Shown here: positions 48,478-64,000 of the stretch, one piece after another
Numbering within the stretch: position 1 is the first letter of the stretch
How the letters are laid out: each line of letters opens with the position of its first letter
Source: a phage
Sequence record: PX969468.1
Reading direction: 5' to 3' (one strand)
DNA length: 64,000 bases
The notes under the pieces: model-generated
What the model was told of the DNA's origin: nothing
What the model saw: the letters and a program-made list of their open reading frames with translations, nothing else
Databases searched by the model: none
Program-made: the position numbers and the translations under genes

Positions 48478-50545
48478 ATTTATGGCATCTGCATACAACC
48501 GTTTCGGTGAGCCAAACCCGAAAGCAACTAAGTATAAAAGTGGGGGAAGTGTGAAACGAGACTATCGTGATGAAAAAGAAGTTGAAACTGTAGAGACTGT
48601 TTTAGAAAATACTAAAATTGTCCCTGTCCCACAACAAAATATCGGTCTGATGGCTGCACAATATTTTGGTGTGCGATCAGCATTGTCCCAAGAAGACGGT
48701 GTGACAGTCACTGCAACATATTTCCCATATTACGACCGCTACGGAAATCTGTCCGGTTTCAAAAAGCGTGACTGGACGATTCCTAAAGAGCAAAGGGGCC
48801 ATTTCTCCGTTGTTGGCATCGTAAAGGCCAACTCCCAGATGTTTGGTCAAAAGCTGTGTGCATCTTCCAACAACCGTAAGCAGATTAACGTTTGTGAGGG
48901 AGAAGGTGATGTTATTGCAGCATGGCAGGCTGCATATCAGATACAAGTAAAAGGGATTCTCACCAACGCTAAAGCCCCGGCAAAGGTGAAGCAGTGGGCT
49001 AAAGAGGTCCAGGACGGGATCGACGCAGTTATCAACGGTGGTGATCTGGCAGGAAAACCCTGCCTGCCTTTTGTTGGAATTAACTGTGGATGTGCAAACG
49101 CAGTAGATACTTTTGCAAACAATGAGAAGTTTATCCGTAGCTATGGAACAGTTGTGCTGGCAATGGATAACGATGCAGCTAACGAGGTAGAGAAGCAAAA
49201 ACACGTCATTAAAGGTGTTGAGGCCACGCACAATATCGCAGCATTTTTGATGGCTGATAACGTTTACCACGTAGAATACCCTGGTGAAGTAAATGACCCT
49301 GACGGTGTAAAAGATATCCGAGACATGCTGAAGGCTAAAAAGCTGGAAGATATTGTCAACATGTTCCGGCACCCTGTTAAATATGTGCCTGATGCTGTGT
49401 CGGATTTAGAAGACTTCTCTATCGAATCTTTGCGGAAAAAGACTTCCAACGGGGTAGATATCAGCGCAGAGTTCCCAAAACTGCAAAAAATGCTAAAAGG
49501 CTTGCACAAAGGGACACTTGTAATGCTTACAGGTCCATCAGGAGGCGGTAAAACAACTGTAGCTAAAAAACTGGAACACTGTATTGCAAGATACCTAATG
49601 GACCCGACATGCCAGAAGGCTGATGACTACGAAGAGGATGATCGTCTATGTATGATCCATCTTGAGGAGGACCCAGAGGAAGCAATTAACTCCTTGTATG
49701 CAAACCAGTTAGGGTTCGATGTTAAAGAGTTTGTTGAAGATCCTAGCCAGTTTTTAACTGATCAAGAACACGCAGAGATTCACCAATCATGGGCAAAAGC
49801 TGGAAAAATCAAAGTGTTCAAACATTTCGGGTCTATTCCGGTGGACGAGTTGATTACCAAGCTTAAGCAAATGGTTTGCCTGTACCATTGTCGTTATATT
49901 GTACTGGATCACCTGTCCATGGTAATTTCAGGGCTTAATGTTAAGGATGAGCGAAAAGAACTGGACATAGCTATGACCCAACTGGCTGCGTTTTGTAAGC
50001 AGTTTAATGTGTTTATCTTGGTGATCGCTCACCTCAAACGTACAGAGATTGTGCCTCCTAAAGACAAGGATGGTAACCCGTTACCTTTCTGGTATCCTGT
50101 GCGAAAAGAGAATTTGCGAGGATCGGCTGGGCTTGAACAGTTGAGTTGGGTAGTTATAGGTGTCGAGGCCGAAGAAATGGTGGATCGTTCTCGTGGACGT
50201 GTCCGTCTGGTAGGTCTTAAAAACCGTCCAGCAAAAACTTTAGGTATTGCTGACACTTTGGTTATGGACCCGCATACAGGTAAGTTCCATGATGCCAGTA
50301 ATTGGTACTGGGACAAAGAAATGCAAATGTTTACAGATGGAGAAGGTGGGGAGGTTGTTTGGAGACCTCAGGCTATGTTTGAGGATCAGGAGCATGCAGT
50401 TGTAGAAACACCTATGGGCAAGGTTGTGGCTGATAAGGTTGTAACTCCTACTGTTAAGCCTGTTGACACGCAGGAAGACCTCCAGTACGATGATCCGTCC
50501 TCTGACCCTGTTCCTGGTTTTGAAGACGATGAAACACCTTTTTAA
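48467..50545 (+). CDS. DNA primase-helicase (T7 gp4-like; Toprim plus DnaB-family helicase)
   Basis: Toprim-like CEGEGDVIAAWQ and VLAMDNDAANE; helicase Walker A LTGPSGGGKTT, Walker B YIVLDHLS, AHLKR. Confidence 0.75.
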   Translation: MGSKFMASAYNRFGEPNPKATKYKSGGSVKRDYRDEKEVETVETVLENTKIVPVPQQNIGLMAAQYFGVRSALSQEDGVTVTATYFPYYDRYGNLSGFKKRDWTIPKEQRGHFSVVGIVKANSQMFGQKLCASSNNRKQINVCEGEGDVIAAWQAAYQIQVKGILTNAKAPAKVKQWAKEVQDGIDAVINGGDLAGKPCLPFVGINCGCANAVDTFANNEKFIRSYGTVVLAMDNDAANEVEKQKHVIKGVEATHNIAAFLMADNVYHVEYPGEVNDPDGVKDIRDMLKAKKLEDIVNMFRHPVKYVPDAVSDLEDFSIESLRKKTSNGVDISAEFPKLQKMLKGLHKGTLVMLTGPSGGGKTTVAKKLEHCIARYLMDPTCQKADDYEEDDRLCMIHLEEDPEEAINSLYANQLGFDVKEFVEDPSQFLTDQEHAEIHQSWAKAGKIKVFKHFGSIPVDELITKLKQMVCLYHCRYIVLDHLSMVISGLNVKDERKELDIAMTQLAAFCKQFNVFILVIAHLKRTEIVPPKDKDGNPLPFWYPVRKENLRGSAGLEQLSWVVIGVEAEEMVDRSRGRVRLVGLKNRPAKTLGIADTLVMDPHTGKFHDASNWYWDKEMQMFTDGEGGEVVWRPQAMFEDQEHAVVETPMGKVVADKVVTPTVKPVDTQEDLQYDDPSSDPVPGFEDDETPF

Positions 50546-50603
50546 TGTTTAACCAAGAGTGGGAGGGGTAGTACAACCGCCTCCCCTTTAAGGAGAACAC
50601 TTT

Positions 50604-53027
50604 ATGAGTATGTATAGCTTCGATTTTGAGGCCTCTGGGCTTTTGGAAGATCCAGACCTTTATTATCACTGCGGCCTGTTTAAAGCGTTGAATAAGAACC
50701 GTTTTATGCTGTTCCTTCCTCTAAATGACCGCACACACTACTCCGAGGAGGATATAGAAAAGGCTAAGAACTTCATTCTGGCAAAGAAAACTCTTTATAA
50801 AGATTTTGAAGTTCGCATAGCAGATTTTTCAGAGTTGGAAGGTTGGCTTACAGGAAATTCTGACTGGTCACCAACAGCTTTGAACTGCCATAACTGCTAC
50901 AGTTATGACTTTATGCTGATGGAAAGATTATCTGGTATTCATTTTGATATGTTCCGTGATCCTAAATGTATGGGGACTATCAACGATCACCAGGTTAACC
51001 TGTTTGATACGTTGGCGATGAGCCGAATCTTGTGGCCTGATCGCCCTTTACCAAAAGGTTGTCCGGACTCTGTATTCAACCCGGTTACTAAGAAAATGCA
51101 GCCTGTTGGTCCTCACGGCCTTATGGCATGGGGCTACGCCCTTGGTAACCAGAAAGTTCAAATTGATGACTGGCGCGATCTTCCGTTATGGAAGTATGTG
51201 GATCGTGTATTTGAGGACGTTATCATCCAGGAGCTGCTCTGGAAAGAGCTGGTAGCGGAATCAAAAGGTGTATTCTACGGCAAATCTGACATGCAGAACT
51301 TTATGTACGATCCTGCCAAAGAGAAGCCGAAAGGGTTCAAGAAGATCACCTGGAAGAACGCATTACGTCGAGGCATGTTGCAGCACTTCCTGATGGAGCT
51401 GCAGGCCCGTCAGGGTGTATACTTCGACATAGATGGAGCTATTGCTTTACGTGACCGTTGCGATGCGTGGATGAAAGAAATCGCTGATCGTGTTGAACCA
51501 CAACTGCCTTTAAAAGAGCTGTCAATGTCTCAGCGGCCCAAGTTCCCTGAAAAGCCGTTTAACCAAGATGGGACAATCTCTAATAATGGTTGGAAATGGT
51601 TAAAAGATAAGCTTGGCTATCCTGTGGACATGAGTGCTTTAGAGTTCAAAGCCCCACCTAAGCGAGCATTTACCTCTACAGGAGATGTCAGTAAGATGGG
51701 GATAAAATGGTGTGAAGAGATGGGCTGCAAAGACCACGATAAGATGGCTGATTTCTTGAGAGGCTATATTAAGGGCACCTCCACACCACAACCTTTACCT
51801 AAAGAGCTAATGGATCAGGCAATAAGTGATCTACAGCAGAAGCGAATGCCGGACTGCAAGATACCTATGAAAATCAGCAATCAGGACGACATTAAGCGAT
51901 ACCTGATCAGTGCTGGTTGGCTTCCGACAATGTGGAGAACTAAGGATGTAACTAAAGACAGCAAGAAGAAAGCTTTACCTGATGCAGATGTTGATGCACG
52001 AGTATATGCATATATGGACGAGCTTTTGGAGTCAGAGTATTGTGACCTAATTATCAACTTCTGGAACAAAACTGATGCTAAGTTCCAGACAACCGTGCAC
52101 AAGTTCCGAAGCTTTCCTAACTCCGAAAGGATTAAAAAGGAAGTATTCGGGAAAATACGTAGAAAAGCTAGGGCACTTATTACTTCTCCGCAACTGAAAG
52201 ATACGTTTGGACACCTGTGTCCGAATCTTGAAAAATTGAACGGAGAGATGGCTAAAGATATCGTCTTATGGTTATCATTGCGAAACCGCAGATCGGTACT
52301 TGATCCAATCAAGGAGGATAAGGTTGACACTGGTCTTCTTAATCACCCACGTTTGAAGATTGACCATAAGCTTCCTGCTAAAAGCTCTGGATTAACAAAC
52401 ACTTCCAGACAGAAACACAGTATTTGTGCAAACATGCCTAAACCCTCTCCTAAAGTGGTTATGGGTAAAGAGATGCGTAGCTTGTGGGGTGTTCCTCCAG
52501 GATACTTTGAGATCGGTATCGACGGGTCCAACTTAGAGCAGCTTATCGGGGCTTGGGGTGCCTTTGAGTTCGACAACGGCCTGTATTACGATGTTGTAAG
52601 TAACGGAGACGCACACCAAAACAATGCTGAGGCATATACAAAAGTAGCAGGCAGAGAGGTGTCCCGTAACGACGGTAAACCTATCACGTATGGGGTTATG
52701 TACGGGGCACAAAAAGATAAAGTTGCAGATATGCTGGACATCTCTCCAGAGTTGGGACAAAGGGTAATCGATGCGCTTTGGGATGCCAACCCTGGTCTTA
52801 AGGGCCGTAAAGAGGATCTGGAGAAATTCTGGGAAGCAACGGGTAAGAAGTTTATCTACTCTTTTGATGGTCATGCCATCTGGACCCGATCTAAACACTC
52901 TTTACTTAATGCATACCAACAGAATGGTGGTGCATCGCTGTGTGACTTAGTTGGGATACTCATGCACCACCAAATGGTGAAGCGTGGGTGGTACGATGAA
53001 GGTGTTCGTCGTATTATTTATTACCAT
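50604..53027 (+). CDS. DNA polymerase, family A (T7 gp5-like), exon 1
   Basis: exo motif FDFEASGL...HCG; FDTLAMSRIL; GPHGLMAWGY; motif B RNDGKPITYGVMYGAQ; exon ends after His codon of motif C (IIYYH), then in-frame stop inside the intron. Confidence 0.85.
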
Positions 53028-53303
53028 AAATAACATTGTGGCTTCATAGAGTAATCTATGTCGAATAACCTCTTTAACTGCGGGAAGCCTAAACCTTATG
53101 GCAAGGTAATCCGCAACGAAGCGCTCAAAAGAGCGAACGCTCAGAGGCCATTCCGAAAGGAAGTAGACCAGCAAGTGCGGTCGAAATGGGAGGATTCCTG
53201 TGGTTGCTTATCATAGGAATATGAGATGGTCCGATCCTACGTGAAAACGTATGGCTATGCACGTAATGGTGCGGGGTAGCTTAACGACCTACCTGAACTA
53301 TTG
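53028..53303 (+). mobile_element. group I self-splicing intron (ORF-less, 276 nt) in the DNA polymerase gene
   Basis: 5' exon ends in U (ccaT) pairing with IGS gtgg at 53038-53041; intron ends with G at 53303; P/Q/R/S-like core elements in order (ctgcgggaag at about 53078; aatccgcaac at about 53108; ctcagaggcca at about 53140; gagatggtccg at about 53222); splicing restores HDE. Confidence 0.75.
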
Positions 53304-53657
53304 GATGAGTACCAACTTCAAGTGCCTGACACACCGAAGTATAAGACTGTGTACACCTTCGACACAATTGAAGAACTGGAAGCATTTAAGGCAGAACAGG
53401 AGGCCAAACTTCATGTGTTCGACGGTCATAAGTACAAAAAGGCACGCAAAGATGAGGACGGAAACGAAGTAGTTGACAGGGACGGAAACACGGTGTACGA
53501 TCCTATCCTGAACGATGACGGAAAGCTTGAACTTATCTGGAGCCCTGTGGGCGAAATGGTGGTGCATTGCTTCTGGCAAGCTTCTAAAATGATGGGCGTT
53601 CCGTTCCAGATCACAGGTGAATACTTGTGTGGTCGTAACTGGGGCGATTGTCACTAA
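53304..53657 (+). CDS. DNA polymerase, family A, exon 2
   Basis: begins DEYQLQV completing motif C as YYH-DE; C-terminus ...GRNWGDCH ends in His as T7 DNAP does; ORF track lists it as 53301..53657. Confidence 0.75.
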   Translation, partial: DEYQLQVPDTPKYKTVYTFDTIEELEAFKAEQEAKLHVFDGHKYKKARKDEDGNEVVDRDGNTVYDPILNDDGKLELIWSPVGEMVVHCFWQASKMMGVPFQITGEYLCGRNWGDCH

Positions 53658-53706
53658 TGTAAACTATCAACACACGGAAGTGTTGTTAGATAGAGAGGAG
53701 ACTTTT

Positions 53707-53991
53707 ATGGTAGTAGAACCGACAAAAACATTTACCTCCATGACTATTCCTGTTATTATGCAGGTAGAGTGCGTTCAGGTGTCTCAAGTGTGGCCAGGTA
53801 CTAAAATTCCAACAGGGCCTGATTTCTTTCAGGTCGGCAAAGTGTATAATGTCTGGAAGGCACCGGATTGTTACCCTTTCATTAAAGATGACCGTGGAAT
53901 GTTATGGTATCTGGGAAATGATTTGACACTGCATCTTGGAAATGCTATTATTGCAGTGTTCCGGCTCAACAAGAAGGAGGCAGATCAATGA
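53707..53991 (+). CDS. small protein, paralogue family A member 1
   Basis: ATG at 53707 after GAGAGGAG; core FFQVGKVYNVW...IKDDRGMLWYL shared with next two genes. Confidence 0.4.
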   Translation: MVVEPTKTFTSMTIPVIMQVECVQVSQVWPGTKIPTGPDFFQVGKVYNVWKAPDCYPFIKDDRGMLWYLGNDLTLHLGNAIIAVFRLNKKEADQ

Positions 53992-54215
53992 CAACTTTGG
54001 TTAAAGCGACGTTTGTAGAAGAAAAGATGACAGACCTGTCATTCTTTGAAGAAGGTAAGGTCTACAAGGTTTACTACGATAAGGATCGCAGGAACAATAT
54101 GATCGAAGACGAGGAAGGTGTTGCCTGGTTTATCTCCCATCTGGCAAATGGTGAGTATCATATCTATGGAACCACCCTACTTGCCAAGTTTGTAGCTGTT
54201 GAAGAGGATCTATGA
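53988..54215 (+). CDS. small protein, paralogue family A member 2
   Basis: FFEEGKVYKVYY...IEDEEGVAWFISH; ATGA coupling. Confidence 0.4.
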   Translation: MTTLVKATFVEEKMTDLSFFEEGKVYKVYYDKDRRNNMIEDEEGVAWFISHLANGEYHIYGTTLLAKFVAVEEDL

Positions 54216-54406
54216 AAGTAAAGTATCTGGCTGAAGGTATGAGTAGGTATTTTACCCTCGGAGAGGAGTATTGGCCCTTTACGGAAAATGGAGATGTATA
54301 CGTGAAGGATGACCAAGGTGTGCCGTGGTTTCTGCACCATAATGGGTTGGGGTATTCCATCTACTGCGGTGCAGTGAACAACACAACCCTTGCAGAGTTT
54401 GTCTAG
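54212..54406 (+). CDS. small protein, paralogue family A member 3
   Basis: YFTLGEEYWPF...VKDDQGVPWFLHH; ATGA coupling. Confidence 0.4.
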   Translation: MKVKYLAEGMSRYFTLGEEYWPFTENGDVYVKDDQGVPWFLHHNGLGYSIYCGAVNNTTLAEFV

Positions 54407-54416
54407 AGGAGGCAGA

Positions 54417-54788
54417 ATGTTAGTAAAAGGTACCCACACAGTCAAGCAACGTATTGAAGTTGAGATCGATGATTGTGAGCTGAAGCATATTTTGCGGTCA
54501 TGCTCCAACGTTTTGCTCCTTAGTATTCTCCAGGAGCGAGCGGAGAACGAGTTCTTAAATGCACTGGCAGGTCGCCCCGGTGACTTCTGTGTGCGTAAGC
54601 GTGGTGACAACAAGTCATGGTTGTGGGAAATCGATGCCGACTGGGATTACCACAAAAATGAGGGTATAGATGAGCCTATTCGTGAATTGACAGACAAAGA
54701 GATTCAGATGTACAATGAAGTTTGTCATTGGGCAACACGCCAACAAATTTACCTCGACCCTGTGTGGCTGATTGAAAATAGCCATTGA
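54417..54788 (+). CDS. hypothetical protein
   Basis: ATG at 54417 after AGAGGAGG; ORF track start 54390. Confidence 0.4.
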   Translation: MLVKGTHTVKQRIEVEIDDCELKHILRSCSNVLLLSILQERAENEFLNALAGRPGDFCVRKRGDNKSWLWEIDADWDYHKNEGIDEPIRELTDKEIQMYNEVCHWATRQQIYLDPVWLIENSH

Positions 54789-54864
54789 CAAGAAGTAAGA
54801 TTAGATATAAGATGCTTCACACAAACAGAGCGTTGATTTTTAAATAACCAAGGAGACTGCCAAG

Positions 54865-55119
54865 ATGAAAATCACTTTGAAGCCAGAAGAAGTTGCAAAT
54901 GACCGAGCTTTTAAGGATTGCACAGTCGGTGCAATTTATGAAGCAGAGTTTTGTGAGAACCCTCTGGTAAAAGCCCTTCTGGAAGAAGGGGCCCCTTTAT
55001 CACAAGAAGAGATTGATGAGCTGGAAAACTCAGCACAGTGCCTTACCTTTAAAGACGATGAAGGAGACTCTGTCTTGTGCACTGTTAACGAAGTAGTTTT
55101 TGTAAAACCTGAACATTAA
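54865..55119 (+). CDS. small acidic protein, paralogue family B member 1
   Basis: KPEEVANDRAFKDCTVGAIY...FKDDEGDSVLCTVNEV, similar to 55183..55443 and 56142..56387. Confidence 0.4.
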   Translation: MKITLKPEEVANDRAFKDCTVGAIYEAEFCENPLVKALLEEGAPLSQEEIDELENSAQCLTFKDDEGDSVLCTVNEVVFVKPEH

Positions 55120-55122
55120 TAC

Positions 55123-55151
55123 TTGACAACAGTGATAGGGCCTAATATAAT
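55123..55151 (+). promoter_or_regulatory. consensus sigma70 promoter TTGACA-N17-TATAAT with -10 inside a palindrome
   Basis: ttgaca 55123-55128, tataat 55146-55151; palindrome atagggcc-taatataa-tggccctat spans the -10. Confidence 0.55.
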
Positions 55152-55182
55152 GGCCCTATCAAAACGAAAGGGGACCACAGCA

Positions 55183-55443
55183 ATGACTAAACAATATCAA
55201 CGAATTAAAGCCAAGGTTAAGCCAGACTATCTGGAGAAGGACTCTGCTTTTCGGGACTGCACAGCGGACAAAGTTTACACAGGGGCCGTCCTGTTGAACG
55301 ATGAACTTGAAGTAGATGTTCTGGGTAAAGAGGCCGTTATCGAGGATGACAACGGTGACTGTGTTTTCTGCACCACACGGGAGCTAGAAGTTTTAGAATA
55401 CTTCGGTGAAATCTTCAACTCCTTAGACGAAGAGGAAGCGTGA
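55183..55443 (+). CDS. small acidic protein, paralogue family B member 2
   Basis: ATG at 55183 after aaagggga; ORF track start 55123 (TTG) would overlap the promoter; KPDYLEKDSAFRDCTADKVY...IEDDNGDCVFCTTREL. Confidence 0.4.
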   Translation: MTKQYQRIKAKVKPDYLEKDSAFRDCTADKVYTGAVLLNDELEVDVLGKEAVIEDDNGDCVFCTTRELEVLEYFGEIFNSLDEEEA

Positions 55444-55832
55444 TGAAAAATATTTGGGATATTGATATCTTTGAAGCCTCTAAGCTTGACGGTGCTGATG
55501 GAGTGATTATGGTGTCTGATGGCAAGGCAACACTAACTTCCGGAGATACCATCTATGCCTTGGACGAGCTGGCGCTTCTGAAATCTACCGGTAACACTTT
55601 AGAGGAGCGTCTTCAAGGCTTCGCCTTCAAAGAAGGCACAAATACCGCCATGATGGGTACCACACGGACAGTCCAGGTTGGTAACGGTGTCTATATGATC
55701 ATTGCTGTGTGTCCTAAATTCAGCAACGTCAACAAAGATGATGCTGACGCTGTCAACGATGTGGTTGTTCTCTTCGTGGGTGACGCTATGGCAGACCTGA
55801 TGAATGCAGGAGAAGCGGCAAATGAAGACTGA
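55440..55832 (+). CDS. hypothetical protein
   Basis: 130-aa ORF, ATGA overlap. Confidence 0.35.
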   Translation: MMKNIWDIDIFEASKLDGADGVIMVSDGKATLTSGDTIYALDELALLKSTGNTLEERLQGFAFKEGTNTAMMGTTRTVQVGNGVYMIIAVCPKFSNVNKDDADAVNDVVVLFVGDAMADLMNAGEAANED

Positions 55833-56124
55833 AAACATTACCCCAGCAGGGTTCTTAAAAGTATACCGTGAACTGCTATATACTACAGAGGACAGTGTTC
55901 TAGAGTATCCAGAATATCTTTTGCTGTATAAGTATCTACAGGAAGCTGGTGAAAATCTGCCAGTTAGTGCAGAAGGTGGTCCGAACTGGATATACAGCGC
56001 ATGGAGAAAGGTTGACATTCTCCCAGATCCAGGTAAAGATATGGTAGTTTGGCAGCTTATCAACAACATCGGGATTCCAATCTTCGATGAAGCTGTTAAA
56101 ATCTATTTTGAACTTGACGATTAA
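55804..56124 (+). CDS. hypothetical protein (start uncertain; ATG at 55822 possible)
   Basis: 106-aa ORF overlapping upstream gene end. Confidence 0.3.
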   Translation: MQEKRQMKTENITPAGFLKVYRELLYTTEDSVLEYPEYLLLYKYLQEAGENLPVSAEGGPNWIYSAWRKVDILPDPGKDMVVWQLINNIGIPIFDEAVKIYFELDD

Positions 56125-56141
56125 TATCAGGAGACCTTAAG

Positions 56142-56387
56142 ATGGCTGAAGCAGTTGCTCGCGCGGGACAGAAAGTACGTTGTGTTGAAGTAGGTTTTGG
56201 TGGTAAAGGGTGTCAAAACTTGACTCAAGGTAAGGAATACGCTGTTATTTCTGGTGGTGGCGACGAAAGTATTGTGTTCGAGGGCCACATCCTGGATGCT
56301 GAAAACTTTGAAATCTTTGACGACGATGGGGATCCGATCACCTGCCTGCTGGACGGGAATTGGGGAACTTTCGAAGTGATTGGCTAA
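56142..56387 (+). CDS. small acidic protein, paralogue family B member 3
   Basis: KVRCVEVGFGG...FEIFDDDGDPITCLLDGNW shares the DD-GD-C core. Confidence 0.35.
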   Translation: MAEAVARAGQKVRCVEVGFGGKGCQNLTQGKEYAVISGGGDESIVFEGHILDAENFEIFDDDGDPITCLLDGNWGTFEVIG

Positions 56388-56397
56388 CAAATACCTA

Positions 56398-56426
56398 TTG
56401 TAATTTACAGAAGGGGATGCTAAAAT
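56398..56426 (+). promoter_or_regulatory. sigma70-like promoter TTGTAA-N17-TAAAAT with TG extension
   Basis: ttgtaa 56398-56403, tgctaaaat 56418-56426. Confidence 0.45.
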
Positions 56427-56470
56427 AGTGTCTCCTTCTATGTTGTTCAAATAAAATCGGAGATTCCATA

Positions 56471-56836
56471 ATGGAACAAATGAACGATCAAGCGTCGGTT
56501 GCGATGAACGAGCAAGAACAACCTCAAGAATTTTTCTTAGGGTTAAGTAAAGATCAAGTGTCTCTTCTGCTAGTGCTTTCTTCTTTCATGGGAAGACTTC
56601 AGGAGCTCACACAACAACCGGAGGCTGAACAATTATTTCAGGCTCTGCGTGAAGAAGAAAAATATCGTCGTTTGGACTATGCCTTAGGTTGGGTAGCTCA
56701 ACAACGAGATATGCTGATGGCCCTCTCTGGGACCACAAGTTTTGCAATGGGCCTGTTGGCTCAAGTTCAGGACAAATTAATTCAAGCAGGGTTTGCACAC
56801 ACGGCAAACACTAACGAAGAACAAGGAGACAAATAA
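56471..56836 (+). CDS. hypothetical protein
   Basis: 121-aa ORF with RBS (ggagattcc). Confidence 0.4.
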   Translation: MEQMNDQASVAMNEQEQPQEFFLGLSKDQVSLLLVLSSFMGRLQELTQQPEAEQLFQALREEEKYRRLDYALGWVAQQRDMLMALSGTTSFAMGLLAQVQDKLIQAGFAHTANTNEEQGDK

Positions 56837-58062
56837 TGAGCGTTATTCAACAATTCGCTAACCCGATGAATCCGCGTGAAACTGTTTTACTGGCTCACGG
56901 CATGATCAAGCGTGTTAGCATCAAGCCTATCAAAGGTGCTGATCCTACAACAGGTATTAAAACCACTGTGTGGCAAGGTAAGAAAATTGAGTCCAGCCAC
57001 ACCATCTCTTTACTGATTTCTGAACTGGATTCCTCTGATAACCTACTTCAAGGTGGTGAAGAAGTTTGGATCAGTATGGGCGATAAGCTGCTTAAACCGG
57101 GTCATCAAGACTCTGTCTCTGTTAAAATTGATGACAAGTGGGAAACCGTAACGCCAGGATGGATCGTAAATATCCCTTTGAAGGCAAACGAGCATAACGG
57201 TAAGACCTACTACAAAGGCTCACTGGCTAAGATGGTTAAGCTGGGTGCAGGAGAGGCTCCAGCAGCGACTCAGCAGCAAAAACCGCAACAAGGTGCACAA
57301 TCACAAGGCCAGAAGCAGAAACATCAGCAGAATGCCAATCAGGACGTTTTACGCATCTATGGTGATGTGACTCAGATTGTTGGCAACGTGGTTACTGTTA
57401 ATGACCACAAGATTGGCGAAGGTGCTATGGTTGTAACTGATGAGCAGCTTAAAGACCTGGTGGTAGGTGGTCGTGTTGCAGCCATTGTTGACAAAGACAC
57501 CGGAAACATTATCAGTGGTTTCAAGGCCTATCCTCCTAAGGCAGAGAACGGCACTCAAGGCTCTGGTGGCAAGCGTAAATCCTCTTACGACCCTATCGGT
57601 GTGGAAACGGGGCATAGCATCAATGCGTTGCAAATCATCCTGGATCGCGGGTTTAAGGTAGACGACCCACTAGGAGTGGCTAAAACACTACACGTAGTCA
57701 CTATTGAGCTTAAGAAAGAGTATGCTCAAGCCACCAACCGAACTGAAGATGAAGTAGGTGCCAGTGTCGGTAATGCGGTGTTGAACGCTTGTCGCCGTAT
57801 TGACAAGAAAACGAAAGTTGATGATTTTGCAGCGGCAATTACTGCAGAAGCAAAAGATGTCTTGACTAATCTGGCTGAGCCGTTGTACGATTGGATCAAG
57901 AACGGTGCTGGGTCAACTGACCATCAAGAACCTCAGGCTGCCAAACAGGAAGCAGCTCCACAGCAAAACACTGTAGACGCTCCTCCTGTAAATGATGAGG
58001 AAGATGACCCAATGGATCAGAATCCAGCACAGTATGAGTTCGATGACTCGATCCCCTTCTGA
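56836..58062 (+). CDS. single-stranded DNA-binding protein-like (SSB-type acidic C-terminal tip)
   Basis: Gln/Gly-rich linker then acidic tail ending DEEDDPMDQNPAQYEFDDSIPF, resembling canonical SSB DDDIPF tip; sits in replication module. Confidence 0.5.
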   Translation: MSVIQQFANPMNPRETVLLAHGMIKRVSIKPIKGADPTTGIKTTVWQGKKIESSHTISLLISELDSSDNLLQGGEEVWISMGDKLLKPGHQDSVSVKIDDKWETVTPGWIVNIPLKANEHNGKTYYKGSLAKMVKLGAGEAPAATQQQKPQQGAQSQGQKQKHQQNANQDVLRIYGDVTQIVGNVVTVNDHKIGEGAMVVTDEQLKDLVVGGRVAAIVDKDTGNIISGFKAYPPKAENGTQGSGGKRKSSYDPIGVETGHSINALQIILDRGFKVDDPLGVAKTLHVVTIELKKEYAQATNRTEDEVGASVGNAVLNACRRIDKKTKVDDFAAAITAEAKDVLTNLAEPLYDWIKNGAGSTDHQEPQAAKQEAAPQQNTVDAPPVNDEEDDPMDQNPAQYEFDDSIPF

Positions 58063-58070
58063 GTCCAGTT

Positions 58071-58649
58071 ATGAAATGCAAACGTTGTGGGGAGGACAAG
58101 GAGGCCTCCGACTTCTATACCAGCAACAAATCAACGTGCAAAGAGTGTTGCAAGAAGGCCAGTAGAGAGTCTGACCAATTTGCTAGAGACTCTTCAGAAA
58201 AAGGTGTAATACGCGTGTTGTACAAGGCTCAAAAGTGCAACAGCAAGCAAAGAGGTCACCCTCCTCCGACTTACACCAAGAAAGAGTTTAAGGATTGGCT
58301 ATACCTAAACGGTTACAAAGAGTTGTATGACCAATGGGTAGCCAGCGGATACGACAAAAGGAAAAAGCCTTCTTGTGACAGGATAGATGATTTCAAAGGA
58401 TACTCTTTTGATAATATCCGTTTAACGACTTGGGGAGAAAATAAAGACAAGCAGACAGAGGATATTCTATTGCATAGAAGCACCAGCGGTAGACGGTGTA
58501 AAAACGTAAGAAGGCTGGACAGGAATGGCAACATTCTCAAAGAGTGGGTATCTCACAACTCTTGTAGGAGAGAAACCGGAATATGTGTTGATTACTACAT
58601 TCATGAAAAAATTCCAGCCCCCGATGGGTACTTCTATGAATACTTTTAA
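58071..58649 (+). CDS. HNH_3-like endonuclease-family protein (zinc ribbon plus HNH-like motif with Arg at first His position)
   Basis: CKRCG...CKECC zinc ribbon; PSCDRIDDFKGYSFDNIRLTTWGENKDK resembles the HNH_3 core. Confidence 0.4.
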   Translation: MKCKRCGEDKEASDFYTSNKSTCKECCKKASRESDQFARDSSEKGVIRVLYKAQKCNSKQRGHPPPTYTKKEFKDWLYLNGYKELYDQWVASGYDKRKKPSCDRIDDFKGYSFDNIRLTTWGENKDKQTEDILLHRSTSGRRCKNVRRLDRNGNILKEWVSHNSCRRETGICVDYYIHEKIPAPDGYFYEYF

Positions 58650-58664
58650 CACCTAGTTAACATA

Positions 58665-58693
58665 GCCCTGCCCGAAAGGGTGGGGCATTTTTG
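58665..58693 (+). terminator. rho-independent terminator, second copy of the 47668 hairpin
   Basis: gccctgccc-gaaa-gggtggggc then atttttg; same flanking context (aacac..tag upstream, aggaga RBS downstream). Confidence 0.6.
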
Positions 58694-58711
58694 TATAAGG
58701 AGATCTGAAAA

Positions 58712-59128
58712 ATGACATTAGAAGATATCATTGTTAAACCTGAGAACTATAACCAATACAATCTATCAACCCAATCTGTGGACCTTGGATGCGCCACTGT
58801 CAGTGCGTGGCTGGTTAACGGAAAAGAGTTGGATAAATGCTTAGAAGCTCACATGACTGTGAACAAGTTCCTTGATGAAAATACTCACTGGCTGGAAGGT
58901 GCAGGTGTATACGCTTCGTGGCTAGAGAGTATGGGATTTGACTACCAATCTGAAGAGGGGTGGTGGAGCTATCTGGCTATCTGTCCAGAGACATTGCAAT
59001 GCTTCATGAAATATTCTGAAGATTTGGAGTACCGGGCGGTGGTTGACAGTGCTATTGCTCGTTATAGCCGTAAACCTTTTTCCCACGACATTAAAACTGT
59101 GGAAGAATTTGTTGAAGTTTTCTGTTGA
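58712..59128 (+). CDS. hypothetical protein
   Basis: 138-aa ORF after RBS (taaggagatc). Confidence 0.4.
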   Translation: MTLEDIIVKPENYNQYNLSTQSVDLGCATVSAWLVNGKELDKCLEAHMTVNKFLDENTHWLEGAGVYASWLESMGFDYQSEEGWWSYLAICPETLQCFMKYSEDLEYRAVVDSAIARYSRKPFSHDIKTVEEFVEVFC

Positions 59129-59224
59129 CACAGGTTGTAAGGTGTGCAATTATAACCTTGTAGAGCTGGAGGATGTGATGAACGAAGAAAACTGGGATGT
59201 GTAACTAACAGGAGGCCACTGCCC

Positions 59225-59422
59225 ATGATTTATCGAATCCGTGTGAGAGAAGATGCACCAGGTTGTTACTTTGACTGGCGTGGGTGGTGGTTTCTCCACC
59301 CAATGGATGGACTCACAGATAGAATGCTGGATGCTGCCCTTTACACAGATACCGACATAGAGTATAATCTTTACTTGAAAGATGGTATCGATAACGGCCT
59401 GTTTGAAGCAATTCCTGCGTAA
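59225..59422 (+). CDS. hypothetical small protein
   Basis: 65-aa ORF with RBS (caggagg). Confidence 0.3.
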   Translation: MIYRIRVREDAPGCYFDWRGWWFLHPMDGLTDRMLDAALYTDTDIEYNLYLKDGIDNGLFEAIPA

Positions 59423-59487
59423 GAGAATGTGATCGCCATGTTTTATGATCTTCCTGTAGCACCACCTATTGATCCTGGAGAACTACG

Positions 59488-59907
59488 ATGATTTATGAAA
59501 TGCCAAAATTGATCCGTGACGATGCCCAAAACCACACCATTATTATGGGTAAACGCATGAATATCCTTTGCCGTAACGATTTCTGTGGTGTAGAATACGT
59601 TGCAGACTACTTCGGTGAGAATGGTAAACACCCTGTTCAGTTCTTCCTTGACCATGAGGATAACATTATCTGGGAGTTTGAAACTGAAGATATCCGCAAC
59701 CTCTTCATCTTCCTCGGTGTCAAGGTTAAGGCCAATTTCGCGGAAGGTGAGTGCGACGATTGTGGATTTTATGAGGTGACAGACTTCTATCTCCCGAGTG
59801 GCAAGAACCTTTACTATGAGAGTCACTTCGGAAACACCAACATGCCTCAAAGCTGGGAAGAATTTTTCAGTATCGTAGAAGAGGAGCTGGCATACCGTGA
59901 TTATTGA
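59488..59907 (+). CDS. hypothetical protein
   Basis: 139-aa ORF. Confidence 0.4.
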   Translation: MIYEMPKLIRDDAQNHTIIMGKRMNILCRNDFCGVEYVADYFGENGKHPVQFFLDHEDNIIWEFETEDIRNLFIFLGVKVKANFAEGECDDCGFYEVTDFYLPSGKNLYYESHFGNTNMPQSWEEFFSIVEEELAYRDY

Positions 59908-60355
59908 TACTGTAAAGGGAGATTTAATCTCCCTTTTTAAGAGCGGTGCTGGTCACCTAATCCACGGTTGTAACTGCTTCCACACAATGGGTAAGGGCAT
60001 AGCAAAACAGATTGCCCGTGAGTTTCCTCAAGCATTGTCAGCCGACAAAGAGACCAGACACGGTTGCCTAAGTAAACTGGGTGCGTTCTCCCGATGGGAG
60101 CACTTATCTCCGAGAGGTATTGTCTACGGAATCAATCTGTATACTCAGTTCTACCCAGGGCCTAATGCTGAATATTTCTCAATCCTGAAAGGCTTTGAGC
60201 TAGTCAATGAGGTATTCGAGGGATCGACTTTACCATTCTACATCCCTAAGATCGGATGCGGTATAGGCGGTTTGAAGTGGGAGCACGTAGAGGACGTTAT
60301 TAACCTCGCCACTTTTGATATAGATATTATCGTGGTGGAGTACAAAGAGTGTTGA
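59897..60355 (+). CDS. macro-domain protein (ADP-ribose-binding/processing fold)
   Basis: GHLIHGCNCFHTMGKGIAKQI matches macro-domain Gly-rich loop 1; LPFYIPKIGCGIGGLKWE matches second loop; GTG start after GAGGAG. Confidence 0.55.
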   Translation: MIIDTVKGDLISLFKSGAGHLIHGCNCFHTMGKGIAKQIAREFPQALSADKETRHGCLSKLGAFSRWEHLSPRGIVYGINLYTQFYPGPNAEYFSILKGFELVNEVFEGSTLPFYIPKIGCGIGGLKWEHVEDVINLATFDIDIIVVEYKEC

Positions 60356-60380
60356 CAGCTGACTTTTGAGATGGTATAGT
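60352..60380 (+). promoter_or_regulatory. sigma70-like promoter TTGACA-N17-TATAGT
   Basis: ttgaca 60352-60357, tatagt 60375-60380. Confidence 0.5.
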
Positions 60381-60411
60381 CACCACAACGATTGAGAGAG
60401 GGAGCACCACT

Positions 60412-60612
60412 ATGGAGACTAAAATCTTAATTCTGGCTGTGATAGATACGACCGAAGGGGCCGTGTTCGAATCTGCAGGAGGGTATTTCTACCTGCCCTA
60501 CGGAAAAATAACTTCCGAACCGAGTAAAGATTCAATCCTTAAAGTGTTCCCTTGTGCTTTCTGGCTGGAGATTCTGGTAGAAGATTGCAGAGGATTGGGG
60601 AGAGAATTATGA
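60412..60612 (+). CDS. hypothetical small protein
   Basis: 66-aa ORF after RBS (agagggag). Confidence 0.3.
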   Translation: METKILILAVIDTTEGAVFESAGGYFYLPYGKITSEPSKDSILKVFPCAFWLEILVEDCRGLGREL

Positions 60613-60803
60613 GAAACAAGAAAGAGCTTTACTCTGGCGAGTGGATCAACGATCAACAGGTCGGAGAGGTAACCTGCTTCCGGTGTTTTACTCGGTACAA
60701 TCTTAAAACTGCACCAAAAAGTGTTCCAAAGACTGACGGTTATTACATAAAAGAACCTCATTGCCCAAAATGTAAATGCCGATTGTACTGGAGCAATCTA
60801 TAA
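60609..60803 (+). CDS. small zinc-ribbon protein
   Basis: ATG at 60609 after ggggagag; CFRCF...CPKCKC; ORF track start 60552. Confidence 0.35.
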   Translation: MRNKKELYSGEWINDQQVGEVTCFRCFTRYNLKTAPKSVPKTDGYYIKEPHCPKCKCRLYWSNL

Positions 60804-60807
60804 GAGG

Positions 60808-60835
60808 TTGACATCTGAAAACTGCAGTGTATAGT
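60808..60835 (+). promoter_or_regulatory. sigma70-like promoter TTGACA-N16-TATAGT
   Basis: ttgaca 60808-60813, tatagt 60830-60835. Confidence 0.5.
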
Positions 60836-60866
60836 ATACACATAAACTAACAGAGAGCGATGTATT

Positions 60867-61058
60867 ATGGTAATTTTTAACCGGGATGGTATCATAGTTA
60901 GACAGCACCCGTTCCTTGAATACTATCAAATTGAGCAATGGTGCTACGGGGATTGCAGTCACTCTTATGGGCAAAGTTGGGGATATCGCACAGTTTTTGA
61001 ATCAACAGACCTTGACAAAGTAAGACAGAAAGTTTTAGAACTTATTAACAACAAGTGA
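60867..61058 (+). CDS. hypothetical small protein
   Basis: 63-aa ORF. Confidence 0.3.
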   Translation: MVIFNRDGIIVRQHPFLEYYQIEQWCYGDCSHSYGQSWGYRTVFESTDLDKVRQKVLELINNK

Positions 61059-61068
61059 GTATCGTGCC

Positions 61069-61401
61069 ATGGTAACATTGGAAAGACGTAAAGCTATCGC
61101 CGCCACACTGGCAGACATCTTTTGGGATTGCAACTTAAAAGATACTCGAAATTGTGGCGCATCTGTAGATGTATTATTCCCACGGCCCACCATTGTTGCA
61201 ATGGGAAACCTGCTCGATGTGGTATATGGAGCATGGGACAAGGAAGGTGGATTCTATATCTGGCAACCTGACTACGGGACTTGGAAAGAGGTTAGTGGTT
61301 CTTCGGACTTCACTCCTGCAGTGGCTAAAATGGATAGCTGGAAAATCTATGTCGGTAACGACATGGAACTGAAAGGCGAAATTGTTTACTGGTTACCTTA
61401 A
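61069..61401 (+). CDS. hypothetical protein
   Basis: 110-aa ORF. Confidence 0.35.
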   Translation: MVTLERRKAIAATLADIFWDCNLKDTRNCGASVDVLFPRPTIVAMGNLLDVVYGAWDKEGGFYIWQPDYGTWKEVSGSSDFTPAVAKMDSWKIYVGNDMELKGEIVYWLP

Positions 61402-61422
61402 GAAAGTCCAGGAGATAAAGTT

Positions 61423-61668
61423 ATGAACAAAGGGTGGACATTTGTAGACGGCGTTAAAAACATGCCTCTAGGAAAGTATATTGTAGCCATGGCAGATGAG
61501 AATGGCAATGTGGATTTCGGAGCTTGCGAGGTTGTTCTTGCAGGATCTGGTAACTATGTGGACAAAACCGGGATAATTAACGGTCAGTTCTACTTTGATC
61601 ACAACCCTGTTGTAGCGTATATGGCTATGCCAGAGTTCAAGTTCCCAAAGGAGGGTGCAGATGTTTAA
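61423..61668 (+). CDS. hypothetical protein
   Basis: 81-aa ORF with RBS (caggagataaag). Confidence 0.35.
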   Translation: MNKGWTFVDGVKNMPLGKYIVAMADENGNVDFGACEVVLAGSGNYVDKTGIINGQFYFDHNPVVAYMAMPEFKFPKEGADV

Positions 61669-61858
61669 GCTTAAATCTGCATGGAACATCGCTGTGGGGG
61701 ACGAGATCCGTATCCCAGGTGGAAAGACCATTATGAAGATATCTCGTATCGAGTACGAAGGTGATCGTGTATTTCATATCTTTGCAGAGGATGGTCGAGA
61801 AATTTATATACAGGCAGGCTCTCACATCTATATTCGTAAGAAAGGGGACGACAAATGA
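61655..61858 (+). CDS. hypothetical protein
   Basis: 67-aa ORF overlapping neighbours by a few nt. Confidence 0.35.
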   Translation: MQMFKLKSAWNIAVGDEIRIPGGKTIMKISRIEYEGDRVFHIFAEDGREIYIQAGSHIYIRKKGDDK

Positions 61859-62181
61859 CAGAGATCATCGTTTCAACTGCAGGGTATGTATTCCTGACAA
61901 TCATTGCGCTGGCTATTCTGGTGGCGGTGTATGGATTTGTTATCCTGCCCATTCTTGAGACATTTAGTTTGTGTCGGTGTTGGAGAAAAGCTTACGGTCC
62001 ACAACCATGGAAGGACTGGCCCCACCTGGTGCGCTTAGCGTTCTCTTATGCTTACGATCACTCCAGCAGTGCATGCATAACCGGATACCACGCCCACAAC
62101 TGGAGCTGGGAAGGGTTGAGGAAATGGAATGTTACAAAGACCATACCTCTGCGCATGTACAAAGGAAAAAGGAGGGATTGA
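61855..62181 (+). CDS. small membrane protein
   Basis: N-terminal hydrophobic segment GYVFLTIIALAILVAVYGFVILPIL. Confidence 0.35.
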   Translation: MTEIIVSTAGYVFLTIIALAILVAVYGFVILPILETFSLCRCWRKAYGPQPWKDWPHLVRLAFSYAYDHSSSACITGYHAHNWSWEGLRKWNVTKTIPLRMYKGKRRD

Positions 62182-62825
62182 TGGGGATACCTGTTAAAGA
62201 CAGAAAAATATGTGGTCGTGGAGTAAACGATTTAAAAGACAAAGTCCCAATGTACCAATCTGTTAATGGTAAGAGAGTACCAGAACCTCACTATGCTACA
62301 TGGAAAGCATTATTCCAGAGGTGCTACGGCGATAACTCAAAGTACCATACAGGTTGTGAAGTTGTAGAAGATTGGTGGTTGTTCTCAGAATTCTGGAAAT
62401 GGATGGATACACAAGAGTGGAAAAGAGACGCTAAGAAGTTCACTCTTGACAAAGACCTGAAAATCCCCGGAAACAGAATATACTCCCCAGAAACATGTAT
62501 GTTTGTTCCACCACAAATAAACACCTTATTTGGCATAAGACAGGCAGCACGAGGGGATTTACCTTTGGGTGTGACACTTAGAAAAGATGTAAACAAGTAT
62601 CTCGTGCATTGTCATCAAGATGGAAAAATTGTTCATGGTGGTCATTTCGATGATCCGCAGATAGCACACAAGGTGTGGCAAGAAATGAAACTTGAGGAGA
62701 TGAAGCTTCAAGCTATTAAAAACAAAGATGAGATTTGGCTGTTCGCCATTAAACGTGCAATAACTATCCTTGAGAATGATTTGAAAAATAATAAGGAGAC
62801 TATAACATTGGTGAAATTTATTTAA
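62181..62825 (+). CDS. AP2-domain protein, homing-endonuclease-like architecture
   Basis: ATG at 62181 after AAAGGAGGGA (ATGA overlap); C-terminal AP2-like segment GVTLRKDVNKYLVHCHQDGKIVHGGHFDDPQIAHKVWQE; upstream part of the 61971 ORF judged non-coding. Confidence 0.45.
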   Translation: MGIPVKDRKICGRGVNDLKDKVPMYQSVNGKRVPEPHYATWKALFQRCYGDNSKYHTGCEVVEDWWLFSEFWKWMDTQEWKRDAKKFTLDKDLKIPGNRIYSPETCMFVPPQINTLFGIRQAARGDLPLGVTLRKDVNKYLVHCHQDGKIVHGGHFDDPQIAHKVWQEMKLEEMKLQAIKNKDEIWLFAIKRAITILENDLKNNKETITLVKFI

Positions 62826-62889
62826 GATATTTATGGTGGTATTTATTTTAAAATTATAAAAATTTTAGGTGATGAGGGAAAATATGTAA

Positions 62890-63340
62890 TGGATTTTCCC
62901 TTATTTATCAGATATTTGCAGATATTTGGAAATCCTTAGAAAATCAGAAAATGGATCGAAAACTAAAATGGATTTTTCAGAGTAGGCGCGACAAGCTGAA
63001 TAACTCATCCTATCGTTTGCACCATATTCCAGGCCACCATTATAGATTTCCCACACATGCTAACCTCCCTCTACTAGAACTTCCTCCACTTACCCTTGAC
63101 CTTCTATGGTAACAATCTAACCACTATCTTGAAGTTGCGGTGCAGCTTTCCAGGTACTCGATCTACTTTTCATTTCAGGGCTTGGATTTTCTGAAAATTT
63201 TTCTCGATAAATTTCTCAGTACTCGATCTGTTTTTCGTTTTCTGAATCGGATTTTCTGGAAATCGTTCCGGATCTAGGCCTGAAATTTTTAGGGACGAAA
63301 TCGATTTTTCGTTTTCAGAAATGGATTTTTAAAATTTCTA
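62890..63340. repeat. AT-rich array of direct repeats and ATTTTC/GAAAAT palindromes (iteron-like)
   Basis: tandem cagatatttg x2 (62908-62927); ~66-bp units at about 63150 and 63216 each containing agtactcgatct...ggattttctgRaaat; palindrome attttc-tg-gaaaat at 63185-63197. Confidence 0.6.
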
Positions 63341-63442
63341 TATGGGAATATTTTAGTGGATACTATTTTATAGGAAATTGTTACGGAGGGTAATTAGCGT
63401 GCTAATTAAATTTATTAAATGCGAGGAGTTCTCATTTAGAAT

Positions 63443-63461
63443 TTTGAATGATAATCATTCT
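63443..63461. promoter_or_regulatory. Fur-box-like palindrome, copy 1 (15/19 to GATAATGATAATCATTATC)
   Basis: ttgAATGATAATCATTcTC. Confidence 0.3.
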
Positions 63462-63578
63462 CGTTTGCAGAATAACGGGCAGGCCCGGTGATTGTCTCCC
63501 GGCCCCTACTGCCCCGGCTTGTTATTATAGTAACACACAGGACAAAGAAAGCAAGAAGTTTTTGCATAAATTTTTAGA

Positions 63579-63597
63579 CGATAATGATAATCGTTCT
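63579..63597. promoter_or_regulatory. Fur-box-like palindrome, copy 2 (17/19 to GATAATGATAATCATTATC)
   Basis: GATAATGATAATCgTTcTC; both copies followed by ...tgcag and a GC-rich segment ccggtgRttgtctccc. Confidence 0.35.
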
Positions 63598-63675
63598 CAT
63601 TTCATGCAGCGCCCATCCCCGGTGGTTGTCTCCCCCGTCACCGGTGCCTGCCGTCCTTTCGATATGTATATTGTG

Positions 63676-63998
63676 CCACCTGGCGGGGCCGCTGTCAACA
63701 CTTTTCAAAAAATTTTTTCTAACCTGATGCGCTAACCGCTGCAACCTGGCGGGGCCAGCCTGGCAGGACCTAACTGACCAGGTAGGGGAGAATGAAGGCT
63801 TGCAAACCTGGTGGGCCTATGCTATAGGATAGGTAACAATTGAAGAGGAGGTACAAAAAATGAAAGGTAATATATGATCCCCCTGGAAAATGTAGCTATT
63901 AATGACACTGAGGCTATCGCCCTGGTTGAAAAGGCTATGGCGGGAGCGTTGGAACATAAAGAAGAGTACGAAAAAATGATGGTTAACCTGGCAGGGGC
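63676..63998. repeat. GC-rich iterons AACCTGG(C/T)(G/A)GGG(C)C, four copies
   Basis: ccacctggcggggcc (about 63676), caacctggcggggcc (about 63741), aaacctggtgggcc (about 63802), aacctggcagggg (about 63984). Confidence 0.5.
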
Positions 63999-64000
63999 GG
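63873..64000 (+). CDS. hypothetical protein, 5' partial (runs off window end), preceded by 5-codon micro-ORF
   Basis: ATG at 63873 opens MIPLENVAINDTEAIALVEKAMAGALEHKEEYEKMMVNLAGA...; GAGGAGG RBS serves an upstream MKGNI micro-ORF (63859-63876) overlapping the start. Confidence 0.3.

Follow-up and report, generated by a model that had tools for sequence, protein, structure and literature searches.

The virion RNA polymerase of coliphage N4 uses promoters built around small DNA hairpins that are extruded under supercoiling, with stems of 5-7 bp and 3-nt loops, and the polymerase that reads them is encoded by the phage itself. At the RNA level, intercistronic and 3'-end stem-loops without a U-tract occur in mRNA, as exemplified by REP-type stabilizers. 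In T4-like phages, PeSL elements combine a strong sigma-70-like early promoter with a G/C-rich stem-loop between ORFans (PMC2839356, PMC4122927) and also act as recombination points (Arbiol et al. 2010, PMC2839356; Comeau et al. 2014, PMC4122927). PeSL is the closest described composite element to the locus analyzed here. For a role at the level of DNA, the nearest precedent, to judge from its description in a later paper, is the promoter of Horwitz and Loeb (1988), an engineered Escherichia coli promoter that is repressed by a cruciform (cited in PMC6060812). For phages of the rV5 type, Kropinski et al. (2013) predicted 33 sigma-70 promoters across the rV5 genome, which has a long early transcription unit with many small genes without assigned function (PMC3606486).

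The locus compared here with these systems is a promoter-like element whose -10 hexamer is surrounded by an inverted repeat. It lies in a stretch of 64,000 nucleotides from the phage record PX969468.1, hereafter referred to as the window. On the basis of sequence similarity, we assign the window to Vequintavirus, as a virulent myophage of E. coli that is rV5-like. The 3 kb surrounding the site matched 116 phage records at 88-97% identity, and those matching records that were looked at in detail are classified as Vequintavirus. The label "Campylobacter phage" is carried by 16 of the 116 matching records. A tblastn search with the protein encoded downstream of the element returned the same 116 Vequintavirus records only, all at least 86% identical, and scans of IMG/VR and metagenomes by protein and by DNA pattern gave 2 + 2 further loci on contigs that are partly identical. 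Since the homologue searches stay inside Vequintavirus, the comparative depth of this study is one genus. For the comparison, 28 versions of the intergenic region were aligned, drawn from phage records, two IMG/VR contigs, and one gut-metagenome contig. In the searchable literature, we found no transcription start site or transcriptome data for Vequintavirus or Vequintavirinae.

The site sits inside an early unit equivalent to that of rV5, in a spacer of 63 nt that separates two small genes. All ten neighbouring small proteins fall in PHROGs of unknown function, and neither flanking protein matched Pfam. The operon of small genes probably ends at the terminator-like site at 56409..56439. The features of the locus, all on the + strand, are as follows.

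54785..54813, + strand: upstream promoter, TTGACA-N17-TAAGAT, annotated as "P220" in the rV5 record
54865..55119, + strand: upstream gene, 84 aa, a weak paralogue and the homologue of rV5 ORF220
55123..55128, + strand: -35 hexamer TTGACA, matching the consensus at 6/6 positions; its TTG is also the "start" of the mechanical ORF 55123-55443
55129..55145, + strand: spacer of 17 nt, the 3' part of which is the left hairpin arm
55133..55142, + strand: left arm of the inverted repeat, TGATAGGGCC, 10 bp
55143..55151, + strand: loop, TAATATAAT, 9 nt, the last six bases of which are the -10 hexamer
55146..55151, + strand: -10 hexamer TATAAT, 6/6, inside the hairpin loop
55152..55161, + strand: right arm of the inverted repeat, GGCCCTATCA, 10 bp, lying over the discriminator and the predicted +1
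55157..55159, + strand: predicted transcription start, A 55158, 7 nt past the -10 hexamer as in the usual sigma-70 geometry
55168..55174, + strand: Shine-Dalgarno sequence AAGGGGA, annotated as a ribosome-binding site in Murica and conserved as GGGG or GGAG
55183..55443, + strand: downstream gene, an 86-aa ORFan starting at ATG 55183, homologue of rV5 ORF219 and member of phrog_11936
56409..56439, + strand: next terminator-like site, annotated as a terminator in Murica

The sequence TTGACA-N17-TATAAT is, exactly as the sequence-only reading had described it, a perfect sigma-70 consensus, and it is the single 12/12 match to TTGACA-N16-18-TATAAT across both strands of the 64-kb window. From dinucleotide shuffles, 0.06 such matches are expected, and at least one occurred in 5 of 100 shuffles. 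An extended -10 TG is absent from the spacer. In all 28 related sequences TTGACA is unchanged and the spacer is 17 nt long with variable bases, while the -10 hexamer varies at its third position only, reading either TATAAT or TACAAT (the latter in rV5). The intergenic region of Shigella phage CM1 is 78-82% identical to the window, the flanking genes being 93-97% identical; in this phage 7 of the 17 spacer bases are changed and the leader is heavily substituted, with both hexamers and their spacing intact. In phage Gotham, a PhagePromoter annotation covers exactly these 29 bases. The rV5 GenBank record annotates P220 upstream and no promoter at the site itself.

Transcription from the predicted +1 at 55158 would yield a 25-nt leader with AAGGGG before ATG 55183, and the element shares its strand with the Shine-Dalgarno sequence and ATG, lying 25-30 nt upstream of them. 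In phage ime, the complete genome has four 12/12 sites, each followed by a Shine-Dalgarno-like stretch of purines (AGGAG, GAGAG, or AGGGG); at the promoter site and at 93876, an ATG can be seen beyond that stretch. The locus has a -35 hexamer, a -10 hexamer, a spacer within 17 ± 1 bp, and a same-strand gene with a plausible leader. Judged by these sequence features, TTGACA-N17-TATAAT is likely a real sigma-70 promoter; the earlier claim to this effect is supported by the hexamers and spacing kept in the 28 relatives (with TAcAAT in some) and by the Gotham annotation. The promoter is an ordinary one for rV5-like phages, of a kind already known and already annotated in one relative.

The mechanical ORF is open from the TTG of the -35 hexamer (55123), and an upstream ATG is present at 55150, where the -10 hexamer meets the right arm. 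Were the protein to start at either of these, the "promoter" would be an accidental sequence within an N-terminal extension. The ATG equivalent to 55150 is the annotated start in rV5, RudolfGeigy, magaca, HMD-6, JES2013, and others, FV3 and slur16 are annotated with a start that is even earlier, and the phrog_11936 profile has 11 extra N-terminal positions. However, in CM1 the upstream ATG reads ATG GTC CCC CTC TAA, with a stop after four codons, and in MiataMamis one inserted nucleotide, a G within the Shine-Dalgarno region, shifts the upstream ATG out of frame, so that its frame ends nine codons beyond the real ATG. Neither 55150 nor 55123 is preceded by a Shine-Dalgarno sequence, whereas a conserved AAGGGG, whose GGGG core at 55170-55173 lies 9 nt before the ATG, precedes 55183. 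By inspection, the substitutions in 55152-55182 lack a third-position bias, and the alignment with the upstream paralogue (30% identity, E = 8e-9) has residue 28 of the long ORF as its first position, beyond 55183. That the region is coding is, in our view, extremely improbable.

The sequence comparison places the true start at ATG 55183, the equivalent of which is annotated in Murica, JEP1, V18, CM1, ime, ECP2309, and EPFV3. The sequence-only reading had preferred this ATG on the argument that a start in the open reading frame would overlap the promoter; its choice was right, and the CM1 stop and the MiataMamis frameshift are stronger evidence for it than the overlap. In phrog_11936 the 86-aa protein aligns with positions 12-96, and the 11 positions before these therefore stem from mis-annotated members. 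The start of a widely mis-annotated ORFan is thereby fixed at ATG 55183, and many records, together with the phrog_11936 profile, carry at least 11 spurious N-terminal residues that correspond to promoter and leader.

The inverted repeat that had been reported around the -10 hexamer is real, but its arms are 10 bp long, two bases longer on each side than described, and an end coordinate of 55158 cuts off the right arm because this arm runs to 55161. Six of the 10 pairs in the stem are G-C. The predicted RNA fold has a free energy of -18.3 (centroid) to -19.6 kcal/mol (z = -4.1), and none of 200 shuffles folded as well. Perfect hairpins with a stem of at least 10 bp and a loop of 3-12 nt make up 4 entries at 3 loci in the window, compared with 0.78 ± 1.08 in first-order Markov shuffles. 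Among the 105 promoter-like sites of the ime genome, the promoter site is the only one where a 10-bp inverted repeat encloses the -10 hexamer. The search for a second ime promoter with its -10 in a loop gave none, the next best bracket being one of 6 bp at 16491, which is within chance, and the remainder being 5 bp or shorter. The repeat is perfect in a minority of relatives: the identical 46-mer is present in 8 of 115 records (ime shares the perfect palindrome), and in most relatives the left arm reads GATGGGGCC, making the arms asymmetric.

Pairing, rather than arm sequence, is what the relatives keep. In the 20 distinct sequences, 92.5% of the pair cells hold standard pairs, compared with 25-49% in a control in which the 3' partners were slid by 1-3 columns. 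Both sides have changed in three pairs. Pair 55140/55154 is mostly G-C and is A-T in rV5, JES2013, AlexBoehm, and MiataMamis. At 55137/55157 the window has A-T, the commonest variant G·T, and PMBT16 G-C, a series that, read from the alignment, follows the classical route via a wobble intermediate. Further G·T pairs are found in ECP2309 and in the JEP1/EPFV3 group, and CM1 keeps a stem, GGGACC(A)...(T)GGTCCC, around the -10 hexamer despite a different surrounding sequence. When folded as + strand RNA, all 14 distinct variants form the same hairpin, at -9.9 to -18.3 kcal/mol.

The covariation score was 0.166, as against 0.121 ± 0.014 in shuffles, and 1 of 500 shuffles reached the observed score; in this shuffle-based test, related sequences can exceed shuffles without any structure. 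Taken by itself, the number of double-change pairs lacks significance, with 74 of 500 shuffles reaching it. Murica and C12, HMD-6, and 241Ecol014PP have a mismatch in the stem and fold at only -10 to -11 kcal/mol, and PMBT16 is mismatched at the loop-closing pair. The outermost pair is unpaired in 8 of the 20 distinct sequences, and among single transitions, counted as events, wobble pairs are about as frequent as mismatches. The evidence from pairing is modest because the sequences are close relatives, the independent events number about three, the double-change count is non-significant, and the stem has mismatches. The locus nevertheless shows what defines a conserved stem-loop, namely pairing kept by compensatory and wobble changes, with the modest weight that close relatives give it, and we conclude from the alignment that the hairpin is real and that its pairing is probably selected.

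We also asked which known type of element the hairpin might be. A G+C-rich stem-loop is present, but no U-run follows the stem in either direction: the + strand continues AAACGAAAGG and the - strand CTGTTGTCAA. For lack of a U-tract, an intrinsic (Rho-independent) terminator was rejected on both strands, and the terminator scan likewise left the site unlisted. Rfam gave no hit over the hairpin at E ≤ 1; the sole hit within 54600-55700 was a chance T-box match (E = 0.37). Classical RNase III substrates are longer than a 10-bp stem, and an RNase III site was set aside for that reason. No sequence similar to the palindrome was found in E. coli genomes. The Tn10 tet operator has half-sites (CCCTATCA / TGATAG) similar to the arms, which are in swapped order and about 13 bp further apart; we take this similarity to be coincidence.

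The sequence-only reading had left the repeat as a potential operator or hairpin. The hairpin half of this is supported by pairing that persists through compensatory and wobble changes; the operator half is unsupported. A dimeric protein, either a phage early or middle protein or a host regulator, could in principle bind the 10-bp half-sites and shut the promoter off. The perfect dyad of the window genome covers the -10 and the +1, a classical repressor position, and the small protein ime_12, with weak helix-turn-helix matches just below the Pfam cutoffs, is a possible candidate. Yet the half-site is not a recurring signal: with at most one mismatch it has 6 matches in the window against 8.6 expected and is never paired elsewhere, and with at most two mismatches it has 80 matches in the ime genome against at least 72 expected, none of them paired. 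Nor does a comparable bracket occur at any other ime promoter. The half-site centres are 19 bp apart, substitutions preserve pairing and not half-site sequence, CM1 keeps its stem with a different outer sequence, and E. coli genomes contain nothing similar. An operator is unlikely for a palindrome that has no second copy in the genome and whose arms are asymmetric in most relatives, the perfect 46-mer being confined to the 8 of 115 records. A role in the DNA itself, in which negative supercoiling, for instance in the wake of polymerases arriving from upstream, would extrude a cruciform and the -10 would be switched by being placed in a single-stranded loop, is suggested by the perfect repeat with its 10-bp arms and AT-rich 9-bp centre prone to melting, by a single-stranded DNA fold of -10.3 kcal/mol (z = -6.35), and by the enrichment of inverted repeats in E. 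coli promoter regions (PMC6060812). The relatives speak against it, most of them having one G·T pair on the + strand. The counterpart of this pair on the opposite strand is A·C, so that a cruciform would have one weakened hairpin; with RNA parameters, the + and - strands fold at -18.0 and -13.0 kcal/mol in the commonest variant and at -14.4 and -4.7 kcal/mol in ECP2309. Arms of 10 bp around a 9-nt loop are, besides, short for stable cruciform extrusion, and the design is absent from the other promoters in the genome. We regard this role as distinctly unlikely.

The palindrome may also have no function, having arisen by chance or hitch-hiking in the spacer and discriminator, with the covariation produced by linked substitutions and recombination among close phages. 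The intergenic region is a recombination junction, and linked changes can therefore arrive together; the rarity of the perfect repeat, the mismatches in Murica, C12, HMD-6, 241Ecol014PP, and PMBT16, the open outermost pair, and the non-significant double-change count all fit this account. What it leaves less well explained is that the 10-bp bracket is far beyond those of the other 104 promoter-like sites (maximum 6 bp), that compensatory replacement has taken place in two different pairs, that a third lineage, CM1, has rebuilt the stem from different sequence, and that each variant folds at -9.9 kcal/mol or better. We therefore treat a functionless palindrome as possible but doubtful. The composite reading that we prefer, of a real promoter together with a selected stem-loop that has an RNA-level role in read-through transcripts, we put at about an even chance of being correct as a whole.

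According to this composite reading, unmodified host RNA polymerase would use the promoter early in infection, starting near A 55158, and the 25-nt leader with its Shine-Dalgarno sequence would serve the gene beginning at ATG 55183. Because the left arm lies upstream of the predicted start, the promoter's own transcript would contain no more than the end of the right arm, a few bases, and would be unable to form the hairpin. Inspection of the sequence upstream of 55133 revealed no acceptable -10/-35 combination that would give a transcript with the hairpin at its 5' end. The hairpin would thus form solely in sense RNA initiated farther upstream, at P220 (54785), the likely source of read-through, or at promoters beyond it. 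Such read-through is plausible since no terminator-like site was found between the 54785 promoter and the hairpin, the next one being that at 56409-56439. Two ordinary intergenic signals, an internal early promoter and an intercistronic RNA stem-loop, would then be superimposed.

Elsewhere in the ime genome, hairpins at early promoters occupy one of two positions: 40-75 nt upstream of the -10, where some are canonical terminators with a T-run and give a terminator-then-promoter layout, or 15-30 nt past the -10, as hairpins in the 5' leader. At our locus the two signals would overlap because the 63-nt spacer leaves no room for them side by side. By analogy with known stem-loops, the most likely role of this one would be to protect or mark the 3' end of the upstream message after processing, or to weakly attenuate read-through. 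This RNA role is proposed by analogy only, given the missing U-tract and a stem that, at 10 bp, is short for RNase III.

The overlap might instead be a device that couples the activity of the internal promoter to transcription arriving from upstream. Transcription-driven supercoiling could extrude the cruciform and so hide or expose the -10 hexamer, or a sigma-70-dependent pause at the non-template TATAAT could be reinforced by the nascent RNA hairpin before the next ribosome-binding site. If true, read-through and local initiation would be mutually regulated, and the locus would be a natural promoter controlled by its own flanking inverted repeat. We consider such coupling very unlikely and retain the superposition of promoter and stem-loop as our working explanation.

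With this analysis, the map of the rV5-like phages, which serve phage therapy and biocontrol, gains one well-conserved early promoter. The 63-nt spacer indicates that one set of bases can accommodate both a promoter and a selected stem-loop, and it offers a compact natural test case of whether overlaps between promoters and stem-loops have regulatory consequences. In practical terms little changes; the hairpin surrounding the -10 is a minor curiosity, and no long-standing question is opened up by the site.

Of the systems considered at the outset, the N4 promoters share with this locus a small DNA hairpin within a phage early promoter. They are not of the sigma-70 -35/-10 type, whereas the Vequintavirus promoters fit the host consensus. 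The REP-type stem-loops resemble the element in position and form, as the stem-loop here lies 14 nt past a stop codon in a polycistronic setting, has no U-run, and is followed by an A-rich single-stranded stretch; the difference is that function here is proposed from position and the conservation of pairing only. In the Horwitz-Loeb promoter, as far as its description in the citing paper goes, the -10 region likewise lies within an inverted repeat, such that extrusion would remove the -10 from the duplex. That promoter was engineered and its cruciform shown experimentally, whereas the present one is read from sequence and has short arms, and in most of its relatives one pair is G·T on one strand only.

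The early promoters of the rV5-like phages (PMC3606486) belong to the same genus and share the consensus TTGACA-N15-20-TATAAT and the location before small early genes in a long leftward early unit. At this site rV5 has TACAAT, and its record leaves the site unannotated; the rV5 and Gotham annotations are predictions, and they make no mention of the inverted repeat. PeSL shares with the locus the composite of promoter and stem-loop, the small ORFans, the plastic early region, and the setting in a large virulent myophage. PeSL elements also have recombination breakpoints within them, and a joint at the -10 is seen here in a single case, the chimera 241Ecol014PP, which is of the CM1 type to the left of the -10 and of the standard type to its right. 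The stem-loop of PeSL lies beside the promoter, upstream of an AT-rich tract, and its termination activity has been demonstrated, whereas the one described here overlaps the -10 and has no U-tract. Likewise, the PeSL motif is found in many copies per genome, as opposed to a single copy here, no second one occurring in the window or in the complete ime sequence. Our locus thus has the promoter in an ORFan-rich early region that is typical of PeSL and lacks the adjacent terminating stem-loop and the repetition. Set against these systems, a promoter overlapped by a covarying stem-loop is a small new variant.

As is apparent from the records of related phages, the start of the ORF219 homologue downstream of the promoter has been annotated at three differing positions, at the window equivalent of 55123-55182. 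That this gene starts at the ATG at 55183 is shown by a stop codon in phage CM1 and a frameshift in phage MiataMamis. In the phrog_11936 profile, 11 positions at the N-terminus correspond in reality to promoter and leader.

The intergenic region is rewritten locally in CM1 (positions 434-500 of its sequence, L018). Phage 241Ecol014PP (398-470 of L025) was found to be a chimera, CM1-type up to the -10 and standard in sequence from there on. This switch at the -10 places a recombination breakpoint inside the promoter/hairpin loop of 241Ecol014PP, and one stem position is mismatched (A·C) as a result.

Promoter-like sites are enriched in the early region (window 50000-64000, + strand), with 38 sites compared to 23.2 ± 4.9 in shuffles. 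TTGACA-type sites in the early region lie mainly on the + strand, and some, including those at 53923 and 54687, are located within ORFs. Phage ime has a near-identical leader hairpin, G(G)CGGGAA-nnn-TTCCCGC(C), approximately 10 nt past the -10 of three early promoters, positioned as follows.

L023 (ime genome sequence) ~2918, 6995 and 8884, corresponding to genome 52918, 56995 and 58884, - strand: ime early promoters with leader hairpin

The promoter and leader hairpin of ime form a repeated promoter-plus-stem-loop cassette, of which the window holds zero copies.

The surroundings of the promoter and the stretch close to the end of the window contain the following features.

53018-53253, + strand: group I intron, scoring 64.7 bits with Rfam RF00028 (gathering score 50)
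53617-56387, + strand: some ten small early genes in a row, 64-129 aa long and each assigned to a PHROG of unknown function
63144-63760: repeat-rich stretch, close to the window end

The intron splits the DNA polymerase gene into two ORFs (50604-53033 and 53301-53657). The polymerase gene of phage Murica runs without interruption over 2778 nt, that of RudolfGeigy is annotated as a join of two pieces, and in ime an HNH endonuclease gene sits between the polymerase pieces. Among the small early genes, the two flanking the promoter are weak paralogues, with 30% identity and cross-hits between phrog_12544 and phrog_11936. By eye, a 'DD.G..W/C'-like motif is common to several of the small-gene neighbours.

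The repeat-rich stretch comprises a 47-nt unit present three times at a spacing of 65-74 nt, together with 17-20-nt repeats in pairs spaced by ~135 and ~66 nt, and it is not overlapped by any ORF of 100 aa or longer. The map of rV5 shows a 'non-coding' box (PMC3606486), to which this stretch may correspond; it could be an origin or a regulatory region.

Among the phage records matching window 54000-57000, sixteen named 'Campylobacter phage' share ~96% identity with this E. coli Vequintavirus, which suggests that the hosts of these submissions were mislabelled or that coliphage contamination occurred. C12, the one such record inspected, carries the flag UNVERIFIED.

The hairpin arms TGATAGGG and CCCTATCA (window 55133-55161) appear similar to the Tn10 tet operator half-sites. 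Compared to those half-sites, the arms stand in swapped order and far wider apart, and the likeness is therefore probably a coincidence.
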